Source of the DNA: Patescibacteria group bacterium
GTDB taxonomy: Bacteria; Patescibacteriota; Minisyncoccia; Phycocordibacterales; UBA9973
Assembly (NCBI GenBank): GCA_028868715.1
Contig: JAGWUB010000002.1
Span: 211,388-275,387, forward strand
DNA length: 64,000 nt
Direction: 5' to 3'
Under the pieces are notes generated by a model, which searched no databases, had not been told where the DNA came from, and saw only the letters and a list, made by a program, of their open reading frames with translations. Positions 6,229 through 52,130 of the stretch are shown one piece after another. Made by a program: the position numbers and the translations under genes. Every line of letters starts with the position of its first letter. Position 1 is the first letter of the stretch.

Positions 6229-6932
6229 TTTTTTTCTTGATTTATCTCTGGTCTTATAAAATAAACTCTTCTATTGTCATTGTCGTAAAAAACAACGTCT
6301 TCTTCGTGAGCTATTGTTTTGGGGCCATTTATTATTTTTGGTTTAAATGTAAAAAAACTTTGTACTTCCTCTGAAATAAGATCTACTGCTTGGTGATAAT
6401 CCACACCAGCCAATCCTCCATCTGTATGTCCACCGAGAATCACAGCATCTACTGTTTGCGGTATACATTTGTCTTTGACTTCATCTAATCGTAATTTTAA
6501 ATCATTCAAAAATTGAGCTTTATTTAAAAAACGAGGAGTAGATACCTGATGAGTTAAAAAGGAAATATTTTTATTGGTTCCCTGTTCTATTCCCCCTACA
6601 ATCAAACTCGTACAAGAAAAAATTGCATCTGACATTTTATTTGAACCATTAACCTGAGACATCACATAGGTTCCTTCACCGGCGTGTAAAAAACCATTTT
6701 CTTGAAATTCATGTTCTTTGCCAAACCAGTCAATATTCTCTAAATTGTCATTGTCTCTATTAACTAATCCAAAATTATTATCTAAATGGGAATAATCTGC
6801 TTTCTTAAAACTTTCTTCATCAAATTCTTTAGACTTTCTAAAATCCTCAAGAGTACCAATACACACAAAGATAGGCTTCACCCCTTCTTTCAAGTGTCCT
6901 CTGTGTTCAGATATATTTATACCTTCCTTCAT
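6225..6932 (-). CDS. hypothetical cytoplasmic protein (start overlaps downstream protease gene)
   Basis: 235 aa with no signal peptide. There is a 4-nt overlap with the matrixin-like gene. Confidence 0.45.
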   Translation of the reverse strand: MKEGINISEHRGHLKEGVKPIFVCIGTLEDFRKSKEFDEESFKKADYSHLDNNFGLVNRDNDNLENIDWFGKEHEFQENGFLHAGEGTYVMSQVNGSNKMSDAIFSCTSLIVGGIEQGTNKNISFLTHQVSTPRFLNKAQFLNDLKLRLDEVKDKCIPQTVDAVILGGHTDGGLAGVDYHQAVDLISEEVQSFFTFKPKIINGPKTIAHEEDVVFYDNDNRRVYFIRPEINQEKK

Positions 6933-6934
6933 TT

Positions 6935-7939
6935 TTATTTTTGAGTCAGAGTATACCTATCCAAAATAGCTTCAAACATAAGTGGAGCGACGATAGTGGC
7001 ATCGGATTCAATCACAAACATCGGAGTGTCCTTGGTGAGTTTGTCCCAAGTAATTTTTTCATTTGGAGTTGCGCCGGAATATGAACCATAGGAAGTCGTG
7101 GAGTCTGAAATCTGGCAGAAGTATCCCCATGGACGCACTTCTTTCTTTAAGTCGTATTTTATAGAAGGCACCACACAGATCGGGAAGTCGCCAGAGATAC
7201 CACCACCGATTTGGAAAAATCCAAGCCCCGGACCGTCTTTAGAAAGTTTTGGATACATGTCATATAGATACATCATGTACTCTATCCCAGTTTTTACAAC
7301 ATTTGAATTTGTTTCTCCATCATTACAGGCGGCAGCAAACACATTTCCCAAGGTCGAATCCTCCCACCCCGGAACAACTATTGGCAAATTTTTCTTCGCT
7401 GCCTCAAGTAGCCAGCAATGTTCGGGGTTGCCTTCGTATTTTCCTTTTAAATCATCAGAAAGTAACATTTTATAAAAATATTCGTGCGGGAAAAAACGCT
7501 CGCCTTTAGTTTCCGCATCCTTCCAGTGTTTTAAAATAATCGGCTCAATAACTCGAAAAGCTTCCTCCTCGGGGATAGTAGTGTCCGTAACTCGGCGCTC
7601 TCCTCGGTTTAAAATTGCCTCATCGTCTTCTTTGGTGAAATATCTATAGTCTGGGTAGTCCTTATAATGACTGTGTGCAACTAATCTAAAAATCGATTCC
7701 TCTAGGTTGGCACCTGTGCAAGATATGGTATGAATTTTGTCCTCTTTGATCATAGCCGCCAAGGTCACCCCCATCTGGGCCGAAGACATGGCTCCGCCCA
7801 TAGCCAGCATCATTTTACCGCCATCATCCAAGTGTTTTTTGAAAGCGAGGGTAGCATCCTTCATCGCCCGTGAATTAAAATTGTGGAATAGTTTTTGAAA
7901 TAGGCCCAATATTGAAAGCTGATTCTTTTCGTTACTCAT
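6935..7939 (-). CDS. deoxyhypusine synthase-like protein (DHS/homospermidine-synthase family)
   Basis: GGAMSSAQMG and TGANLEE motifs of the DHS family. I chose the start at MSNEKN (7939) rather than the track's upstream ATG (8011). Confidence 0.7.
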   Translation of the reverse strand: MSNEKNQLSILGLFQKLFHNFNSRAMKDATLAFKKHLDDGGKMMLAMGGAMSSAQMGVTLAAMIKEDKIHTISCTGANLEESIFRLVAHSHYKDYPDYRYFTKEDDEAILNRGERRVTDTTIPEEEAFRVIEPIILKHWKDAETKGERFFPHEYFYKMLLSDDLKGKYEGNPEHCWLLEAAKKNLPIVVPGWEDSTLGNVFAAACNDGETNSNVVKTGIEYMMYLYDMYPKLSKDGPGLGFFQIGGGISGDFPICVVPSIKYDLKKEVRPWGYFCQISDSTTSYGSYSGATPNEKITWDKLTKDTPMFVIESDATIVAPLMFEAILDRYTLTQK

Positions 7940-8030
7940 ATGTACAGTATACAAAATTTCTGCCAAAAAAGGCAACCTAGCTATGAGGGTTGTTTGCCTT
8001 TTTGGGGCCAATATGCAATAATAGCCCTAT

Positions 8031-8276
8031 ATGAATCTAGTGGTGAAAACTCTGCCATATGCGCAGATTATCCTTTCAGTGATATTAGTGACAGCAATCA
8101 TGCTTCAGCAGTCTGGAGCAGGCTTGGGTGGTGCTTTGGGTGGAGATGATACAGGTAGCTTTCATCACACTCGCCGAGGATTTGAAAAGTTTCTTTTTTA
8201 TTTGTCTATAGTATGTGGAATTCTTTTTGCTTTGTTTGCACTTCTGTCTATTGTATTGATAAAAACAAATAGCTAG
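8031..8276 (+). CDS. secG: preprotein translocase subunit SecG
   Basis: 81 aa, two TM helices. IMLQQSGAGLGGALGG matches SecG (IMLQQGKGADMGASFG). Confidence 0.8.
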   Translation: MNLVVKTLPYAQIILSVILVTAIMLQQSGAGLGGALGGDDTGSFHHTRRGFEKFLFYLSIVCGILFALFALLSIVLIKTNS

Positions 8277-8304
8277 AAATTCCTCTACGTGAAAATTTCT
8301 TTTT

Positions 8305-10113
8305 ATGGAAAATCCCTATAACCGTAAACGTGACTTTAAGGTTGCTCTAAAATTACCGACAAAGTCAAAAATAAACGCCGCACTGGCTTCTTTCTCAAAA
8401 AGAGAACGGATTGTTTTTTCTCTGCTAGTAGTAGTGCTGTTTGTGAGTGCCCTGCTACTCTTAAATAATATCAACAGGCATTTCATGGTGAGCGTACCGA
8501 TGCATGGTGGCAGTATTTCTGAAGGAATAATCGGCACCCCTCGCTTCGTCAACCCCGTACTCGCAAACTCCCCCGCTGACCAAGACTTGGTATCGCTCAT
8601 TTATTCAGGACTTATGAGAAAAAATTCAGATGGAGAGCTGATTCCTGATTTAGCAGAAAAATACACTGTTTCTGACGATGGGCTGACTTATACTTTTACT
8701 TTGAAAAATAATATTTATTTTCATGATGGCAAACCAGTCACTGTGGATGACATCATTTACACTATAAATACAGTAAAGGATTCTGTGATCAAGAGCCCAC
8801 ACAAGGCAAACTGGGACGGAGTGACTGTTTTAAAGATAGATGAAAAAACCGTTGAATTTAATCTAAAGAAACCATATGCATCTTTTTTGGAAAATACGAC
8901 CCTCGGCATCATGCCTTCATATCTATGGGGTGGTTCACCAATTGAATTAAATAGTGAAAATACTAACCCAATCGGATCAGGACCTTATATGATCACAAAC
9001 GTTAGCAAGCAAGCTTCAGGAATAATAAATTATTATGAACTGACATCGTTTAAAAAATTTGCCTTGGGTACACCATATATAGACACTCTGGGCCTACATT
9101 TTTACTCCAATGAAGATGACATGGTGAAAGCTCTCCAAAACAAGGAAGTGGATCAGATAAGTTCGGTCACCCCTGCAAACGCAGAAATTTTAAAGAATGA
9201 TGGATATAAAATAGAATCGGCAATTCTACCTAGAGTATTCGGACTTTTCTTTAATCAAAATGCTAATAGAATTTTTATTGATAAAACTGTAGTCAATGCT
9301 ATCGATCAGGCGATAGATAAAGACAAACTAGTACATGAAGTACTCTCTGGATACGGAGTCACCATCGACGAACCAATACCACCAAATATGGTAGAGTATC
9401 AAAGTCTAAATAGTGAAAATGGTACTTCCCGCGCAGATATATTGCAGAGTGTGCAACAGAGCTTGGCCGACGACGGTTGGGTAAAAAATGCTGATGGAAT
9501 TCTAGAAAAATCAGCGCAACCAACAAAGGTAGTTAAAACAAAAAAAGGTAAGACGTCGACCGTAGCTGTAGGTAAAAAGACGACTACCCTGCTTGAGTTT
9601 TCAATCTCAACTAGCGATGCCCCAGAGCTCACCAAGGCTGCTTCGTTGATACAACAAGATTTAGCGGCTGTCGGCATGAAGGTTGATATAAAAACTTTCC
9701 AAATCGGCAGTTTAAATCAAGACGTAATCCGTCCACGTCAATATGATGCTCTGCTCTTTGGAGAAATTATCAACAATGAATCCGATCTCTTTGCTTTTTG
9801 GCATTCCTCACAAAGAAAAGACCCAGGGCTCAATGTAGCTATGTATACCAATGCAAATGTAGACAAAATTTTAGAAGATGCTTTTGTGACAATCGACAAA
9901 GCTTCTAGAGTTAAAAAATATATCCAGTTTGAAAATGAAATTAAAAAAGATATGCCAGCGGTTTTTCTATACACCCCTGATTTTGTATATGTAGTATCCA
10001 AAAATCTTTCAGGGCTTTCTATGAATCATATAACTTTCCCATCGGATCGTTTTGTTGATGTATATTCATGGTATACGGAAAAATATAATGTTTGGAAAGT
10101 ATTTACCCACTAA
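8305..10113 (+). CDS. ABC transporter substrate-binding protein, family 5 (oligopeptide/nickel type), membrane anchored
   Basis: N-terminal TM anchor; SBP_bac_5 pattern (LIYSGLMRKNSDGELIPDLAEKYTVSDDGLTYTFTLK...HDGKPVT). Confidence 0.8.
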   Translation: MENPYNRKRDFKVALKLPTKSKINAALASFSKRERIVFSLLVVVLFVSALLLLNNINRHFMVSVPMHGGSISEGIIGTPRFVNPVLANSPADQDLVSLIYSGLMRKNSDGELIPDLAEKYTVSDDGLTYTFTLKNNIYFHDGKPVTVDDIIYTINTVKDSVIKSPHKANWDGVTVLKIDEKTVEFNLKKPYASFLENTTLGIMPSYLWGGSPIELNSENTNPIGSGPYMITNVSKQASGIINYYELTSFKKFALGTPYIDTLGLHFYSNEDDMVKALQNKEVDQISSVTPANAEILKNDGYKIESAILPRVFGLFFNQNANRIFIDKTVVNAIDQAIDKDKLVHEVLSGYGVTIDEPIPPNMVEYQSLNSENGTSRADILQSVQQSLADDGWVKNADGILEKSAQPTKVVKTKKGKTSTVAVGKKTTTLLEFSISTSDAPELTKAASLIQQDLAAVGMKVDIKTFQIGSLNQDVIRPRQYDALLFGEIINNESDLFAFWHSSQRKDPGLNVAMYTNANVDKILEDAFVTIDKASRVKKYIQFENEIKKDMPAVFLYTPDFVYVVSKNLSGLSMNHITFPSDRFVDVYSWYTEKYNVWKVFTH

Positions 10114-29959: not shown

Positions 29960-32332
29960 TTATAATTTTATACTTTTAATTCTAAGTGAATTGGAAACTA
30001 CGGACACGCTCGACATCGCCATCGCGAATCCAGCAAACACCGGCGAAAGTAGCCAGCCAAATATTGGATAAAAAAGCCCAGCTGCTAGTGGAATTCCAAC
30101 AATGTTATATATAAAAGCCCAGAAAAGATTCTGCTTGATTCCACGCATGGTTATTTTGGAAAGTTTAATTGCTTTGACGAGCTTGGAAATATCTCCACCC
30201 AAAAGAGTAATCCCGGCTGACTCAATAGCCACGTCGGTGCCTGTACCCATAGCGATACCCACATCAGCTTGTGCTAATGCTGGAGCGTCGTTCACTCCGT
30301 CCCCCGCCATAGCCACAATGTGTCCCTCCGTTTGTAATTTTTTAATCTTCAATAATTTATCTGCCGGCAAGACATGCGCCATGACATCATCAATACCCAC
30401 AAGTGATGCAATATATTTGGCAGCCCTTTCATCGTCTCCAGTAACCATAATTACTTTGATTCCGAGTTTATGTAGGTTGTCCACTGCTTGCTTGGATTCT
30501 GCCTTTATTTCGTCAGCTACCATCACAAACCCAAGCACTTTCTCGCTCGTAGCCAGGATAACTGGTGTCTTACCTTCCGCGGTAAATTGTTCTAATTTGG
30601 CAGTATCGAAAGAAAGTTTTAAGTCTTGTATTAGTTTTGCGTTCCCAACAAAATACTCTATTCCATCGATTGACCCTTTTAGACCCTTGCCTTGTATTCC
30701 CTCAAAATTTGAAGTATCTACTATTTTTATTTTTTTATCTTGGGCGTAGTTAACAATGGCATGAGCAATTGGATGCTCAGATTTTTTTTCTAAGGATGTC
30801 AAGATTGAAATAAATTTTTCGTCCGACAAGTCTGAAGAATTTTGAATATCAACCAGTGTAGGTTTGCCGATAGTAATCGTGCCAGTTTTATCTACAATGA
30901 CTGTATCTACTTTATGAAGTTTTTCCAAGGTTGCCGCATCTTTGATCAAAATTCCCTCGCGAGCACCCTTGCCGACTCCAACTATAATTGCCGTCGGCGT
31001 GGCCAGCCCGAGCGCACAAGGACAAGCAATCACCAGTACGCCGACAAAAGAAACCAAGCCGAATGAGAGTGCTTGTGAAAATCCTAGTGGCCCCGCCCCA
31101 ACAAGCAACCATATTCCGAGAGTTGCAAAAGCGATTACCAATACAATCGGCACAAAGATACTTGAAATTTTATCAGCTAAGGCCTGTATGGGGGCTTTAC
31201 TTCCTTGCGCATCTTCTACCATCTGTATGATATGAGCAAGAAGTGTTTCCGCGCCGACTTTGGTACCTTTGAAGGTAAATGCGCCACTGGTATTGATAGT
31301 ACCCGCCACCACACTATCACCAACTTTTTTGGAAGCAGGCATTGGTTCACCGGTCACCATTGATTCATCGACAAAAGATGCCCCTTCGGTAATTATTCCA
31401 TCTACTGGAATTTTACTTCCGGGTTTTACAATAATTAAGTCGCCGTGCACCACTTGATCAATTGGGATCTCAATTTCTTTCCCACCTCTGGTGACTAGAG
31501 CGGTTTTGGCCTGAAGATTAAGTAATTTTTCGATGGCATCGCCAGTTTTTAATTTAGATCTTGCTTCCAGATATTTTCCGAGAGCAATAAAAGTAATGAC
31601 CACAATAGTCACATCATAATAAGTCTGCGTGACATTAATAAAGGGGGCCAGTGATTTTTCAAATGCAGTAACAATAAAACTATATAAAAATGCTGTGATG
31701 GTGCCGATGCCGATCAAGGTATCCATATTTGCTTTACCGTAGCGGAGAAAACGATAGAAGCCAAGTAGGTATGGCTTACCGACAACAAAGAGTGTGTAGG
31801 CCGCCATTATTGGTAATAAGTGATGAAAAAATTCGCCTAGGTTGTAGCTCATTTCTGGCACAGCTTTGTACTCTGCTAAAATGTCCCAAGCCATAATAAA
31901 GATACTTATCACTGCAAGTGGAATAGCCGAGATAACTTTGTTCCGCATATCTTTAATTTCTGCCAACTTTTCAGCCTTGGATTGATTGAGCCCCAAGTGT
32001 GCAGCATGCTCGTCCTCACTCATACCCATTTCGCTCGCCGACATATTCATATTGTGTGCGTCTGATGCAACTAGAGAATACCCTAGTGGCTCTAACTTTT
32101 TATTGAAAGATTCTGGGTTGGTTTTACTTTGATCAAAAGATATTTTTGCATTTTCAGTGCCATTATTAACAGCAATAGATTCTACGCCGTCAATTTTTTT
32201 GACAGTTCGCTCGATAATGCTGGCGCATGAAGCACAATGCATACCTTTTACTTTAAAGGTTTTTGTATACATATTATTTTCTCTTAAGTTTATAAACCTT
32301 AAGTATCTCGGTAGTAGCTTTACCTGTGTCAC
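29960..32332 (-). CDS. copA: copper-translocating P1B-type ATPase
   Basis: N-terminal HMA (GMHCASCAS), [25 protein letters not shown]. The start may be at the internal MYTKTF (32272). Confidence 0.93.
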
Positions 32333-32537
32333 CCTTTTTCATTTGGTCTACGACGCAATGACTAAGATGACCCTCCATAAGAGTGTCTTCAACATTTGAA
32401 AGACCTTGCTTGACCGCCGATGTTTGGGTGATGACATCAATGCAGTAAGTGCCACCATCTATCATTTTTTGAAGCCCACGAACTTGACCCTCAATTATTT
32501 TGAGGTGTCTGATTAATTTATCTTTATTGGTTTTCAT
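32274..32537 (-). CDS. csoR: CsoR/RcnR-family metal-sensing transcriptional repressor
   Basis: 87 aa; the CsoR Cu(I) ligand triad aligns as Cys (YCIDVIT), His and Cys (HLSHCV), with helical bundle pattern. Confidence 0.85.
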
Positions 32538-34925: not shown

Positions 34926-34996
34926 AGTGTATTTATTATATCAGAAATTATTGGGTGTCTGGTACTCTATTGGAACCTTTTGTAGGGAAATAAGGG

Positions 34997-36220
34997 TTAA
35001 AAAGACTCAGCAAAAACACTTGCGGAGCTTTTAAATATTATGTCATTATTTTGAGGCGCTTCTATTTTATATGGGAAAGATTTACCACTATCATCTATGT
35101 ATTCCTCAGGATCTACGAATATTACTTTTAAATTTTGTTTTCTTGCCGATTGCTGTACAAGTCTTCTGTCTGCGTGAGAACCTATTACGAGTAAACTTTT
35201 GGCCTTTTTATTAAATTTAATCTTTGGTGTTAAAAATTGGTCAGTAAATTTTCTAACATACAATTCTGGTATGCCTAATCTTGATATAATGCCATCATAA
35301 TTATTAGTAATAACTGGTCCTACAACTAAACCACTCTTATAGGCACGCTTTAACCATTTATAAAATGATGAGTTTGGCTTGGCTAGCCATGATTGAGAAA
35401 TTATTTTCGTTGCAGATAAATAAAAATTGGAAGGATTTTCGATAATTGTTTCAAATAAATTATCGTCATTACCAAATATAAAGGTTTTATTCACGTTAGT
35501 AGTTTGATATATTTTATGTAAATAGGAAAGAGGATAAACTCCAGTTTCAGTAGATGGACCACAACCAAGTTCAATCTGAAAAGGTTGATATTTCAATATA
35601 TCACTGACATGTTTTACATATTTTGAATGCCCCTTTTGTAGAGGTATTCGAAACCCTTTCTTAATTATTTTCCAAGGATAATATTTTCTTTCATTTTTGA
35701 CATTAATATTACCACCAGTAATTTCTACATCGATCATCTTATAGTCATATGGTATTGGAAGATATTTTTTTACTTCTTCACTTTTTGGTTTAAAAATATT
35801 TATCTTTATTTTTAAACCTCCTAAAGAAGCGGACAGACCTTGTTTTGTTGTTTTGTAAGTAATATTTTTATTTTTCAGAGAAGCAACCATTTTTTTAAAA
35901 ATTTTTTCGGCTTCATGTTTGGGTAAGGAATGATTTATTTTTAAATAAACCCCCTTCAAAAGAAGTTCGGCAATTTTACCCTTGCAAGCAATATCATAGT
36001 TATCAATAAAATGTACTACTCTCCACCTACGGTCTTTTTCCGATTTCCATTTAGATTCATTTTTATTTTCCTTAGCTTGTGTTCTTCTCCATATTCCTTC
36101 ATGTAAATATCTACCGGTAGAAACAAACTGCTTGTTCCAGATTTCCAATCCCTTATTTTTCTTCTGCTGTGCGATTTTAAGTGGAAATTCCATAAGTTTT
36201 TTATACCACATAAAAACCAA
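34997..36220 (-). CDS. SIR2-like (SIR2_2/DHS-like NAD-binding fold) protein with ~200-aa Lys-rich N-terminal domain of unknown function
   Basis: C-terminal half has LGCGPSTETGVYP (GxGxSxxxG[IV]P), ITNNYDGI (compare ThsA TTNYD) and LLVIGSHAD (compare sirtuin LLVIGTSL). No canonical downstream HG catalytic His is obvious. Confidence 0.55.
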   Translation of the reverse strand: MVFMWYKKLMEFPLKIAQQKKNKGLEIWNKQFVSTGRYLHEGIWRRTQAKENKNESKWKSEKDRRWRVVHFIDNYDIACKGKIAELLLKGVYLKINHSLPKHEAEKIFKKMVASLKNKNITYKTTKQGLSASLGGLKIKINIFKPKSEEVKKYLPIPYDYKMIDVEITGGNINVKNERKYYPWKIIKKGFRIPLQKGHSKYVKHVSDILKYQPFQIELGCGPSTETGVYPLSYLHKIYQTTNVNKTFIFGNDDNLFETIIENPSNFYLSATKIISQSWLAKPNSSFYKWLKRAYKSGLVVGPVITNNYDGIISRLGIPELYVRKFTDQFLTPKIKFNKKAKSLLVIGSHADRRLVQQSARKQNLKVIFVDPEEYIDDSGKSFPYKIEAPQNNDIIFKSSASVFAESF

Positions 36221-36231
36221 AAAATCAATTG

Positions 36232-36302
36232 CTGGGAGACTTGGACTCGAACCAAGATAACATCCTCCAGAGGGATGTGTCCTACCATTAGACGATCTCC
36301 CA
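36232..36302 (-). tRNA. tRNA-Gln (anticodon CUG)
   Basis: Cloverleaf folded by hand: acceptor TGGGAGA/TCTCCCA, anticodon stem CATCC/GGATG with loop CTCTGGA, T-arm CTTGG-TTCGAGT-CCAAG, discriminator G. No encoded CCA. Confidence 0.8.
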
Positions 36303-41744: not shown

Positions 41745-42443
41745 TTGAACTTTTTGTTAAATCTGTTAGAATTTAGAAACATGATCAAAATACAGCCAAT
41801 TGTCAGAGAGATAGTCCTCAGTGAAGTAGAGGCTTGTTTTGCGCTTACCAATGGCTATATGAATATGAGTAGCTATGCTTACCAAATACGGCCAAGAGTA
41901 GAAGCTTTGACCAAGAAAAAGGTCACTATTGCGAGCCTTGTGGTTTCCCTCTCCCGTCTGCGCAAGGAATTTAGAAAAGAACGCCCACTCGTCCATGACG
42001 TGGTTATAAAAAACATAACTACCAAGCTCCCAATTTCAGAAATAATTTACGAAAACAATGCAAAGTTTATCAAAGATCTCGAATCACTCCATCGAAAACT
42101 AGAGCTTTCGCAAGACGATTTATTTACCACCACCATCGGCATGGCTGAACTAGATATAATTTGTTCATCAAATATTGAGAAAAAAATTCTGAAACATTTT
42201 CGGTCAAAACCAATTGTGGTAAATCGCAAACTAGCGGCCATAGGCGTGTCTTTTGGCAAGGAAGTGTTTGATACTCCAAATGTATTTTTCTCATTACTCT
42301 CTGTCACTGCTCGAGCTAGAATAAATCTGGAAGAACTAATTTCCACTCCGACCGAGCTCGTATTTATTGTGGCTGAAAAAGATTTCGGCAAAACTGTTGC
42401 TTTGTTTTCAGAACTACATAGAAAGACAAATGTAAAAGATTGA
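41745..42443 (+). CDS. ACT-domain-like regulatory protein, hypothetical
   Basis: Two beta-alpha-beta-beta-alpha-beta-like segments (e.g. VFFSLLSVTARARINLEEL...LVFIVAEKD). The start may be the internal MIKIQP. Confidence 0.4.
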   Translation: MNFLLNLLEFRNMIKIQPIVREIVLSEVEACFALTNGYMNMSSYAYQIRPRVEALTKKKVTIASLVVSLSRLRKEFRKERPLVHDVVIKNITTKLPISEIIYENNAKFIKDLESLHRKLELSQDDLFTTTIGMAELDIICSSNIEKKILKHFRSKPIVVNRKLAAIGVSFGKEVFDTPNVFFSLLSVTARARINLEELISTPTELVFIVAEKDFGKTVALFSELHRKTNVKD

Positions 42444-42515
42444 GCCGATGGACAGGATTGAACTGTCGACCCCCGCTTTACGAAAGCGGTGCTCTACCAA
42501 CTGAGCTACATCGGC
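42443..42515 (-). tRNA. tRNA-Thr (anticodon CGU)
   Basis: GCCGATGTAGCTCAGTTGGTAGAGCACCGCTTTCGTAAAGCGGGGGTCGACAGTTCAATCCTGTCCATCGGCT. Anticodon loop TTCGTAA. Confidence 0.85.
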
Positions 42516-42522
42516 TTACTAG

Positions 42523-42594
42523 AGCCGTTGGTGGGGATCGGACCCACGCTCTCCATATTACCAATATGGTGCTTTACCACTAAGCTACAACGGC
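42523..42594 (-). tRNA. tRNA-Thr (anticodon GGU)
   Basis: GCCGTTGTAGCTTAGTGGTAAAGCACCATATTGGTAATATGGAGAGCGTGGGTCCGATCCCCACCAACGGCT. Anticodon loop TTGGTAA. Confidence 0.85.
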
Positions 42595-52053: not shown

Positions 52054-52130
52054 TGGTGCGCGTGCCACGATTCGAACGTGGGACCCTCGAGGTATAAGCT
52101 CGATGCTCTAACCAACTGAGCTACACGCGC
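52054..52130 (-). tRNA. tRNA-Ile (anticodon UAU), CCA encoded
   Basis: GCGCGTGTAGCTCAGTTGGTTAGAGCATCGAGCTTATACCTCGAGGGTCCCACGTTCGAATCGTGGCACGCGCACCA. Anticodon stem TCGAG/CTCGA, loop CTTATAC. Confidence 0.8.

Follow-up and report, generated by a model that had tools for sequence, protein, structure and literature searches.

Enzymes with the sirtuin fold are known as lysine deacylases, occasionally as protein ADP-ribosyltransferases and, more recently, as antiviral effectors that deplete nicotinamide adenine dinucleotide (NAD+). In the papers that we searched, sirtuins appear as deacylases, as CobB, as Macro-linked SirTM, as defence NADases and as RNA-repair proteins of phages with Nudix, 2H and HAD partners. 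SirTM, a sirtuin-fold ADP-ribosyltransferase of class M, is macrodomain-linked and is found in an operon with GcvH-L and LplA2 (PMC4518038), and predicted RNA-repair sirtuins of phages are linked to Nudix, 2H, cREC and HAD (PMC9503650). The gene considered here lies in a 64,000-nucleotide stretch from the assembly of a Patescibacteria group bacterium (GCA_028868715.1, contig JAGWUB010000002.1, positions 211,388 to 275,387; hereafter the window) and encodes a two-domain, sirtuin-like protein that a preliminary description, made from the DNA sequence alone, had put forward as a candidate defence effector. Neither its family nor a sirtuin/GT4/methyltransferase/NUDIX neighbourhood is described in the papers that we searched. 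We are highly confident of four points: (i) the protein contains a sirtuin-superfamily domain with an NAD pocket; (ii) it is neither a canonical deacylase nor a member of the SIR2_2 defence clade; (iii) it carries a new, conserved N-terminal domain and (iv) it is accessory and horizontally transferred. With regard to function, we favor the possibility, at a probability of roughly 0.45, that the family consists of NAD+-cleaving enzymes that would transfer ADP-ribose or phosphoribose to a non-lysine acceptor during glycoconjugate or small-molecule modification.

The place of the C-terminal half in the sirtuin superfamily is evident from profile and structure comparisons. In a Pfam search at E<=10 the sole match of the window protein was to classical SIR2 (PF02146), over profile positions 2-98 of 180 and below the gathering threshold (14.2 bits against a cut-off of 24). 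SIR2_2 (PF13289) was not matched in that search, PADLOC at E<=10 and NCBIfam gave no match, and a single-sequence search of the PDB found nothing. At the level of the family, 16 of 38 members match PF02146 at E<=1, and P0226, the best-scoring member of a sister clade, reaches the Pfam SIR2 gathering score with 34.9 bits. A profile of 38 homologues matched Sir2Tm at E = 1e-3 from the GxG loop through T-Q-N-I-D, and a C-terminal-domain profile that included the sister clade matched Sir2Af2 at E = 8e-8, followed in rank by Sir2Af1, Sir2Tm, SIRT7, Hst2, SIRT6, SIRT3 and SIRT2. When the AlphaFold (AF2) model of the full protein (predicted local distance difference test (pLDDT) 90.9, predicted template modelling score 0.89) was used as a Foldseek query in the PDB, the best match was SIRT3 (prob 0.99), and SIRT1 was also found. 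Chains of ThsA, DSR2, SIR2-HerA and SPARSA were not among the PDB sequence or Foldseek matches listed. The motifs quoted in the preliminary description (ELGCGPSTETGVYP, VITNNYDG, ELYVRKF and LLVIGSHADRR) are all in the sequence and the SIR2/DHS-like fold that it proposed is borne out; the SIR2_2/ThsA-like subfamily is not, because all sequence and structure matches are to classical sirtuins. Judged from the alignments and the model, the C-terminal half is a sirtuin-superfamily (DHS-like, SIR2-type) NAD-binding domain related to classical SIR2 and not to SIR2_2/ThsA.

Within this domain the NAD pocket is kept and the features of a deacylase are lost. The motifs that correspond to the sirtuin dinucleotide-binding loop and to T-Q-N-I-D are listed in Table 1; in the hidden Markov model (HMM) alignment N298 and D300 fall on Sir2Tm N99 and D101. 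As established for sirtuins, the Asn and Asp take part in nicotinamide cleavage and the His in the later steps of deacylation. The column of the catalytic His (Sir2Tm H116), in which a His had not been obvious at first reading, is occupied in our 38 sequences by Tyr (19), Phe (3), Ser (15) or Leu (1), and by His in none. The short spacing that had been remarked between the Asn motif and the following strand also proved real. Only ~17 residues separate the E-x-Y-x-R strand from the GSHADRR strand, and a secondary HMM stretch lays 'viGSHADRR...vDPE' on Sir2Af2 'VVGSSLVVYP...VNAE' while skipping the Zn-ribbon module, so we consider the whole module to have been deleted. The sole invariant Cys is C211, the Cys of GCG, and a Zn-Cys4 ribbon is not present. 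With both the catalytic His and the Zn module gone, the earlier caveat that this may be a divergent or non-deacetylase NAD-binding protein was well placed.

Several residues are invariant in both the family and the sister clade: (i) the Gly pair of the GxG loop together with the Glu downstream of it (GCGPSxE in the family, GSGLSxE in the sister clade); (ii) L222 and H226 in the cofactor-loop region, N298, D300, G307 and R314 and (iii) the G...D-R-R strand and a C-terminal Y...D pair. The corresponding C-terminal-domain motifs of the sister clade are GSGLS, T-D-N-x-D and G-V-x-x-D-R-R; D-R-R is thus conserved in both clades and H340 in the clade of the window protein only. Given the retained Asn and Asp and the lost His, the pattern fits an NAD+-cleaving enzyme other than a lysine deacylase, and the invariant H226, E310, R314 and D342 are candidates for alternative bases. 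Database names would suggest an ordinary CobB-like NAD-dependent protein lysine deacylase, as a Streptomyces homologue is entered at NCBI as a 'Sir2 family NAD-dependent protein deacetylase' and UniRef calls another homologue a 'Deacetylase sirtuin-type domain-containing protein'. Such an activity is extremely improbable, however: none of the 38 aligned members has the His, the Zn-Cys4 module is missing, the window protein scores below the Pfam gathering threshold, and the place of the peptide-binding small domain is taken by another domain at the N terminus.

That N-terminal domain is conserved in all full-length family members. Modelled alone (pLDDT 89.8), it forms a curved antiparallel sheet with a long hairpin (residues 57-91) and flanking helices. 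Its W-R-R strand (Table 1) has an analogue, W-G-W-K-R-D, in the sister clade, and S47 and D54 are likewise invariant. The ~200 N-terminal residues had initially matched nothing recognisable, and they still do not: there was no PDB sequence match and no Foldseek match at E<=1e-3 in the PDB or BFVD. The domain had also been called Lys-rich, which holds for the window copy (19% K) but not for the family, whose median is 4.9% K. Throughout the family the domain is basic (K+R median 16%), and the Lys-richness of the window copy is largely a low-GC effect superimposed on this shared property. According to the prediction it packs rigidly against the catalytic domain, and it probably makes up the acceptor side of the active site.

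When 1.84 billion representative sequences were searched exhaustively with a profile, only 322 representatives were found at E<=1e-3, nearly all of them full-length at ~400 residues, and about 92 stretches in 185,579 species-representative genomes encode a relative. The hosts include many Patescibacteria lineages, Bacilli, Heliomicrobium, Actinomycetota, Myxococcota, Acidobacteriota, Gemmatimonadota, Bacteroidota, Ignavibacteriales and several proteobacterial groups. In IMG/VR only three contigs (L091, L092 and L093; 146-223 kb) carry the family, and on these the gene adjoins UDP-glucose-dehydrogenase-like, GT4 or GT2 genes. Two fusions are notable. In P0143 a family protein continues into a C-terminal NUDIX domain that is homologous to a stand-alone NUDIX partner described below (E = 8e-32), and in P0247 a sister-clade protein is joined to an NAD-dependent nucleoside diphosphate (NDP)-sugar epimerase/dehydratase. 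The genomic contexts of the sister clade are uninformative, one being a short contig and the other an orphan copy on an archaeal-looking contig (P0226; L095, 6001-7155, with tRNA-intron endonuclease, DUF357 and DUF763). Taken together, these proteins make up a small, hitherto undescribed family with a His-less, Zn-less core and a new N-terminal domain.

To characterize the neighbourhoods of the homologues, open reading frames (ORFs) were called at 93 loci, those lying up to 5 kb from the family gene were clustered, and the recurrent clusters were annotated. The most frequent partners were GT4 glycosyltransferases (20 loci, adjacent to the family gene in 10) and methyltransferases of the Methyltransf_23/11/12 type (14 loci, adjacent in 5), followed by a NUDIX-like protein of ~250 residues (10 loci, adjacent in 8), GT2 glycosyltransferases (9 loci, adjacent in 2), members of the UDP-glucose/GDP-mannose-dehydrogenase family (9 loci, adjacent in 5) and an O-methyltransferase (Methyltransf_3; 7 loci, adjacent in 5). 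Methyltransferase genes mostly lie directly upstream of the family gene and are co-oriented with it. Also recurrent were aminotransferase IV, HAD phosphatase, NDP-sugar epimerase/dehydratase, sugar-1-phosphate nucleotidyltransferase, aldo/keto reductase, a metallo-beta-lactamase-fold protein and a creatininase-family protein. When the 150 nearest neighbours were scanned against Pfam, the ranking agreed with that of the cluster counts. Some loci are tight operons in which stop and start codons overlap. One of these, L074, has eight genes: a methyltransferase gene is followed by the family gene (7992-9218) and then by genes for the NUDIX-like protein (9215-9952), an unknown protein, a nucleotidyltransferase, a GT4 glycosyltransferase, aminotransferase IV and a HAD protein. 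Cassette types track clades in a rough neighbour-joining tree. The clade of the window protein is dominated by Patescibacteria and consists mostly of orphans, with copies in glycosyltransferase clusters also occurring at L014, L016, L019 and L032. At L016, a Patescibacteria-type metagenome-assembled genome (MAG), two tandem paralogues from different parts of the family tree (6773-7987 and 8001-9215) sit within a cluster of GT4 glycosyltransferases, an O-methyltransferase and NDP-sugar epimerases.

The scheme that we favor is as follows. The enzyme would cleave the nicotinamide-ribose bond of NAD+ (or of nicotinamide mononucleotide or nicotinic acid mononucleotide) in the manner of a sirtuin and pass the ADP-ribosyl or phosphoribosyl group to a non-lysine acceptor, which may be a sugar, a small molecule or a glycoconjugate. 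In the many genomes that have the NUDIX partner, this hydrolase would trim ADP-ribosyl-X to phosphoribosyl-X, and the glycosyltransferases, methyltransferases, aminotransferase, HAD phosphatase and NDP-sugar enzymes would elaborate the product. Several considerations weigh against this scheme: (i) partner genes are missing around the window copy and around most members of its Patescibacteria clade, and for these orphans the operon-based argument would have to be carried over from other clades that are 30-40% identical; (ii) GT4 glycosyltransferases and S-adenosylmethionine (SAM)-dependent methyltransferases are common, and their enrichment is an informal estimate from crude ORF calls set against a rough background expectation; (iii) defence SIR2 NADases also need the missing His, so that hydrolysis or transfer here would require another base and (iv) the relative orientation of the two domains is only a prediction. 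In its most ambitious form, the proposal is that the family is a new branch of sirtuin chemistry in which a His-less, Zn-less core and an acceptor-binding domain use NAD+ as an ADP-ribosyl donor, a dedicated NUDIX enzyme makes the phosphoribosyl group and glycosyl- and methyltransferases elaborate it; this we hold to be doubtful. If it were true, an NAD+-dependent (phospho)ribosylation route in glycoconjugate or natural-product biosynthesis would have spread by horizontal transfer to more than 10 phyla, including the genome-reduced Patescibacteria.

The same NUDIX partner and fusion, together with the HAD neighbours, recall the sirtuin-Nudix-HAD neighbourhoods of RNA repair (PMC9503650), and the group might instead be transferred to a macromolecule, either a protein, as by SirTM, or an RNA or DNA end. 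The absence of the deacylase His alongside preserved residues for nicotinamide cleavage would suit such an ADP-ribosyltransferase, and the strongly basic N-terminal domain (K+R 16-23%) could bind nucleic acid. However, neither the recurrent clusters nor the 25 commonest Pfam families of the 150 nearest neighbours include Macro, and 2H, RNA ligase, cREC and PIN are absent from the recurrent neighbour families of the 93 loci. Glycosyltransferases, methyltransferases and NDP-sugar enzymes predominate among the partners, the comparison with viral structures gave no significant relative, and the viral collection holds only the three contigs mentioned above. Modification of a macromolecule is thus unlikely.

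A further possibility is that the pocket binds a nucleotide without cleaving NAD+, with an NDP-sugar, ADP-ribose or NAD(H) serving as substrate or allosteric ligand of some other reaction of the N-terminal domain, or with the protein acting as a regulator. The DHS-like fold hosts other dinucleotide-binding functions, and the missing His and Zn module, the nucleotide-sugar enzymes nearby and the fusion to an NDP-sugar epimerase/dehydratase would all be in keeping with this. On the other hand, the Asn and Asp that contact the nicotinamide-ribose and nicotinamide in sirtuins are invariant in both clades, and the further invariant polar residues H226, E310, R314, D342 and R343 argue for catalysis. 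A purely binding role is, in our judgement, very unlikely, and we continue to favor NAD+ cleavage with transfer to a non-lysine acceptor.

The preliminary description had raised the possibility of an NADase acting in defence. In its explicit form this would be a stand-alone abortive-infection enzyme, like DSR1/DSR2 or ThsA, in which the N-terminal domain senses infection and frees the SIR2 domain to deplete NAD+. The SIR2 fold with its intact pocket, the many orphan copies and the accessory, patchy and mobile nature of the gene, found in the window at a variable spot beside a tRNA, are as one would expect of such an effector, and a few homologues do lie near genes of toxin-antitoxin or TIR type: L006 has Gp49/HTH pairs, RhuM and SNase near the family gene, and in L001 a GIY-YIG protein and a TIR_2-domain protein (861-2212) lie ~4-5 kb upstream of a homologue that is 79% identical to the window protein. 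The latter is the sole defence-like association that we saw near a close relative. However, beyond the PADLOC search of the protein itself, a PADLOC scan of the 150 nearest neighbours revealed no recurrent defence family. Only 'mad2' repeats there (8 matches; all others are singletons), and we rejected these matches as hits to a generic SAM-binding core (profile positions 276-398 of 492) in unrelated methyltransferase subfamilies. SLOG, the TIR protein ThsB, HerA, pAgo and the large C-terminal domain of DSR were found at none of the 93 loci and in none of the 322 representatives. Moreover, all matches are to classical sirtuins and none to ThsA, DSR2, SIR2-HerA or SPARSA, the His required by defence SIR2 NADases is absent, the recurrent partners are biosynthetic and operonic, and several Patescibacteria copies lie amid housekeeping genes (for example between holA and rpsT in L010). 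Nothing that we found for the window copy points to defence, and we consider such a role quite unlikely. The case suggests that a SIR2 fold, a neighbouring tRNA and atypical GC content are not enough to annotate a defence gene; here the neighbourhoods of the homologues point elsewhere.

On the evidence of composition and alignment, the gene in the window stands alone, having been gained by horizontal transfer and inserted 3' of tRNA-Gln(CTG). The partner families of other loci are not adjacent to it, the window containing only a generic epimerase ~8 kb away. Its GC content is low (0.302 versus 0.38), and its GC content at third codon positions (GC3) is 0.216, with values of 0.31-0.43 in all but one of twelve nearby genes measured. 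The L001 copy shows the same GC contrast with its flanks. The two loci have in common a block of ~1.3 kb (Table 1) that comprises the last ~12 nucleotides of the tRNA, a 37-nucleotide spacer, the ORF and a ~70-nucleotide downstream spacer reaching to the start codon of the next gene. At the tRNA edge the block reads AGTCTCCCAGC in the window and AGTCTTCCAGC in L001, where there is no tRNA. Since the best homologue of the flanking DUF3298 gene is 65% identical and none exceeds this, the sirtuin-like gene (79%) is more similar between genomes than the vertically inherited DUF3298. In the two nearest relatives with long contigs (L098 and L099) the arrangement DUF3298 > PyrG < FtsX < FtsE < PrfB is kept and a tRNA-Gln(CTG) lies nearby; neither has the family gene at the tRNA-Gln site, and the gene 3' of the tRNA is different in each. 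The view that this is an accessory gene at a variable tRNA-adjacent spot has thus stood up well. No repeat of the 3' end of the tRNA-Gln (>=14 nucleotides, <=2 mismatches) was found within the window and no integrase domain in the flanking ORFs scanned, which argues for insertion of a single gene and against an integrase-bounded island. The window copy looks functional in that it carries every family-invariant residue, although this is so by construction, the protein having been part of the alignment that defined them.

The coordinates of the gene, its domains and motifs and other features of the window are given in Table 1. The ATG at 36193 was taken as the start, and is likely to be the true one, because a deposited Patescibacteria MAG protein (P0001) that is 100% identical to the window protein is 398 residues long and because the alignment has an M-x-F-P start at the equivalent position in every family member.

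Table 1. Features of the window, with positions counted from its first nucleotide
Feature	Position	Strand	Basis or remark
Sirtuin-like two-domain protein gene, 398 aa, ATG start	34997..36193	(-)	Stop codon 34997-34999
Mechanical ORF, 407 aa, from first TTG at 36220	34997..36220	(-)	ORF list
Family-specific alpha/beta domain, residues 1-195	35609..36193	(-)	AF2 models, pLDDT ~90
Strand E-G-I-W-R-R-T-Q	36077..36100	(-)	Alignments; E32, W35, R37, Q39 invariant; R36 in >=90%
C-terminal sirtuin-fold NAD-binding domain, residues 196-398, without Zn-ribbon module	35000..35608	(-)	Pfam, profile, Foldseek
G210-C211-G212 of ELGCGPSxExGxP, equivalent to sirtuin dinucleotide-binding loop GAGxSxxSGIP	35558..35566	(-)	HMM alignment to Sir2Tm and Sir2Af2; invariant
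T296-N-N-Y-D300, equivalent to sirtuin T-Q-N-I-D	35294..35308	(-)	HMM alignment; N297, N298, D300 invariant
E310-L-Y-V-R314, equivalent to strand bearing the catalytic His in sirtuins	35252..35266	(-)	E and R invariant; column counts
G338-S-H-A-D-R-R344, equivalent to sirtuin GSS/GTS strand	35162..35182	(-)	Alignments; HMM stretch against Sir2Af2
Block common to window and L001, ~85% nucleotide identity	34925..36242	(-)	DNA alignment, tblastx; flanks unrelated
Spacer after stop codon, ~70 nucleotides	34926..34996		L001 7198-7269
tRNA-Gln(CTG)	36231..36302	(-)	ARAGORN; same strand as sirtuin-like gene
Small ORF, 56 aa	32600..32770	(-)	
Small ORF, 53 aa	32783..32944	(-)	
CsoR-like repressor ORF	32274..32537	(-)	
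Mechanical Cu-ATPase ORF, GTG start	29960..32332	(-)	
tRNA-Thr(cgt)	42442..42515		
tRNA-Thr(ggt)	42522..42594		
Beta-lactamase2-family protein gene, 380 aa	43188..44330	(-)	GC 0.269, GC3 0.168
tRNA-Ile, anticodon TAT (UAU)	52054..52130	(-)	ARAGORN

Both the ORF and the adjacent tRNA-Gln of the original reading are real. The tRNA lies upstream, with 37 nucleotides between it and the ATG. Scanning the gene's own strand upstream of it for promoters gave no site of the sigma-70 type. By eye, a TTGATT-17-TATAAA can be seen in the conserved 37-nucleotide spacer; it fails the criteria of the scan and we do not rely on it. Although the genes downstream are unrelated, the window and L001 have a conserved spacer following the stop codon. 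It contains CCTTATTTCCC and, immediately before the next start codon, TATAAT, and may serve as an outward-facing promoter that travels with the block. With regard to the flanks, which had been described as free of core genes, this applies to one side only: downstream lie a 166-residue membrane protein, a glyoxalase/VOC protein and small hypothetical ORFs, then CsoR and Cu-ATPase genes, but beyond the tRNA on the upstream side are genes for a DUF3298/PdaC-like protein, PyrG, FtsX, FtsE and PrfB.

The remaining observations concern other parts of the window. The CsoR-like repressor ORF overlaps the 5' end of the mechanical Cu-ATPase ORF by 59 nucleotides, and the true start of the Cu-ATPase is probably further downstream than the GTG. 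Adjoining this pair are two tandem small ORFs, which encode clearly similar hydrophobic peptides (…WLFSIGYLRLSFWRGVLALIVWPYYLG and …WLFTIGFLHLTFWKGVLAIIVWPYFLG) with no Pfam match. A second strong compositional outlier, the Beta-lactamase2-family gene, adjoins a GAF protein gene and the two tRNA-Thr genes; in L098 a phage integrase lies beside tRNA-Thr(cgt), just after PrfB, and the region of the tRNA-Thr pair looks like another tRNA-adjacent variable spot. The window also has a tRNA-Ile with a TAT anticodon, which is uncommon in bacteria, where AUA is usually decoded by a lysidine-modified CAT tRNA.

How, then, does the family compare with systems that are already known? With the classical sirtuins (Sir2Af2, 1ma3; Sir2Tm, 1yc5/2h4h; CobB; SIRT3) it has in common the Rossmann NAD-binding core, the GxGxSxExGIP loop, the helical insert, T-[QN]-N-x-D with the same Asn and Asp, and the G-S strand followed by the [DN]-x-E strand. 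It differs from them in the replacement of the His by Y/F/S/L, the deletion of the Zn-ribbon, the extra N-terminal domain of ~195 residues and the new invariant residues H226, E310, R314 and D342-R343-R344, and also in context, its operons being devoted to glycosyl and methyl transfer whereas classical sirtuins have acetyl-CoA synthetase or acetyltransferase partners. Defence SIR2 proteins (PF13289: ThsA, DSR1/DSR2, SIR2-HerA, SPARSA) resemble the family in superfamily fold, in having no role in deacylation and in being accessory and mobile. Unlike them, the family has no sequence, PADLOC or structure match to that group and no SLOG, HerA, pAgo, TIR or large sensor partner, its Asn...His catalytic pair is incomplete and its neighbourhoods are biosynthetic.

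Two further systems for comparison are SirTM and the phage RNA-repair sirtuins. SirTM is likewise a non-deacylase ADP-ribosyltransferase (as proposed for the family) whose operon also supplies an enzyme acting on the ADP-ribosyl product, but the partner here is a NUDIX protein and not a macrodomain, GcvH-L and LplA2 are absent and the N-terminal domain differs. Linkage or fusion to Nudix, and sometimes to HAD, is shared with the phage RNA-repair sirtuins, whereas the family lacks 2H, cREC, PIN and RNA-ligase neighbours, has only three loci in the viral collection and keeps company with GT4, GT2, methyltransferase and NDP-sugar genes. The fold itself is ordinary; it is the architecture, the losses and the repeated glycosyl/methyl/NUDIX linkage that are undescribed. 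If our favored scheme is correct, sirtuin chemistry would extend to the NAD+-dependent modification of sugars or small molecules, and operons such as that of L074 would be a concrete place in which to find the product.

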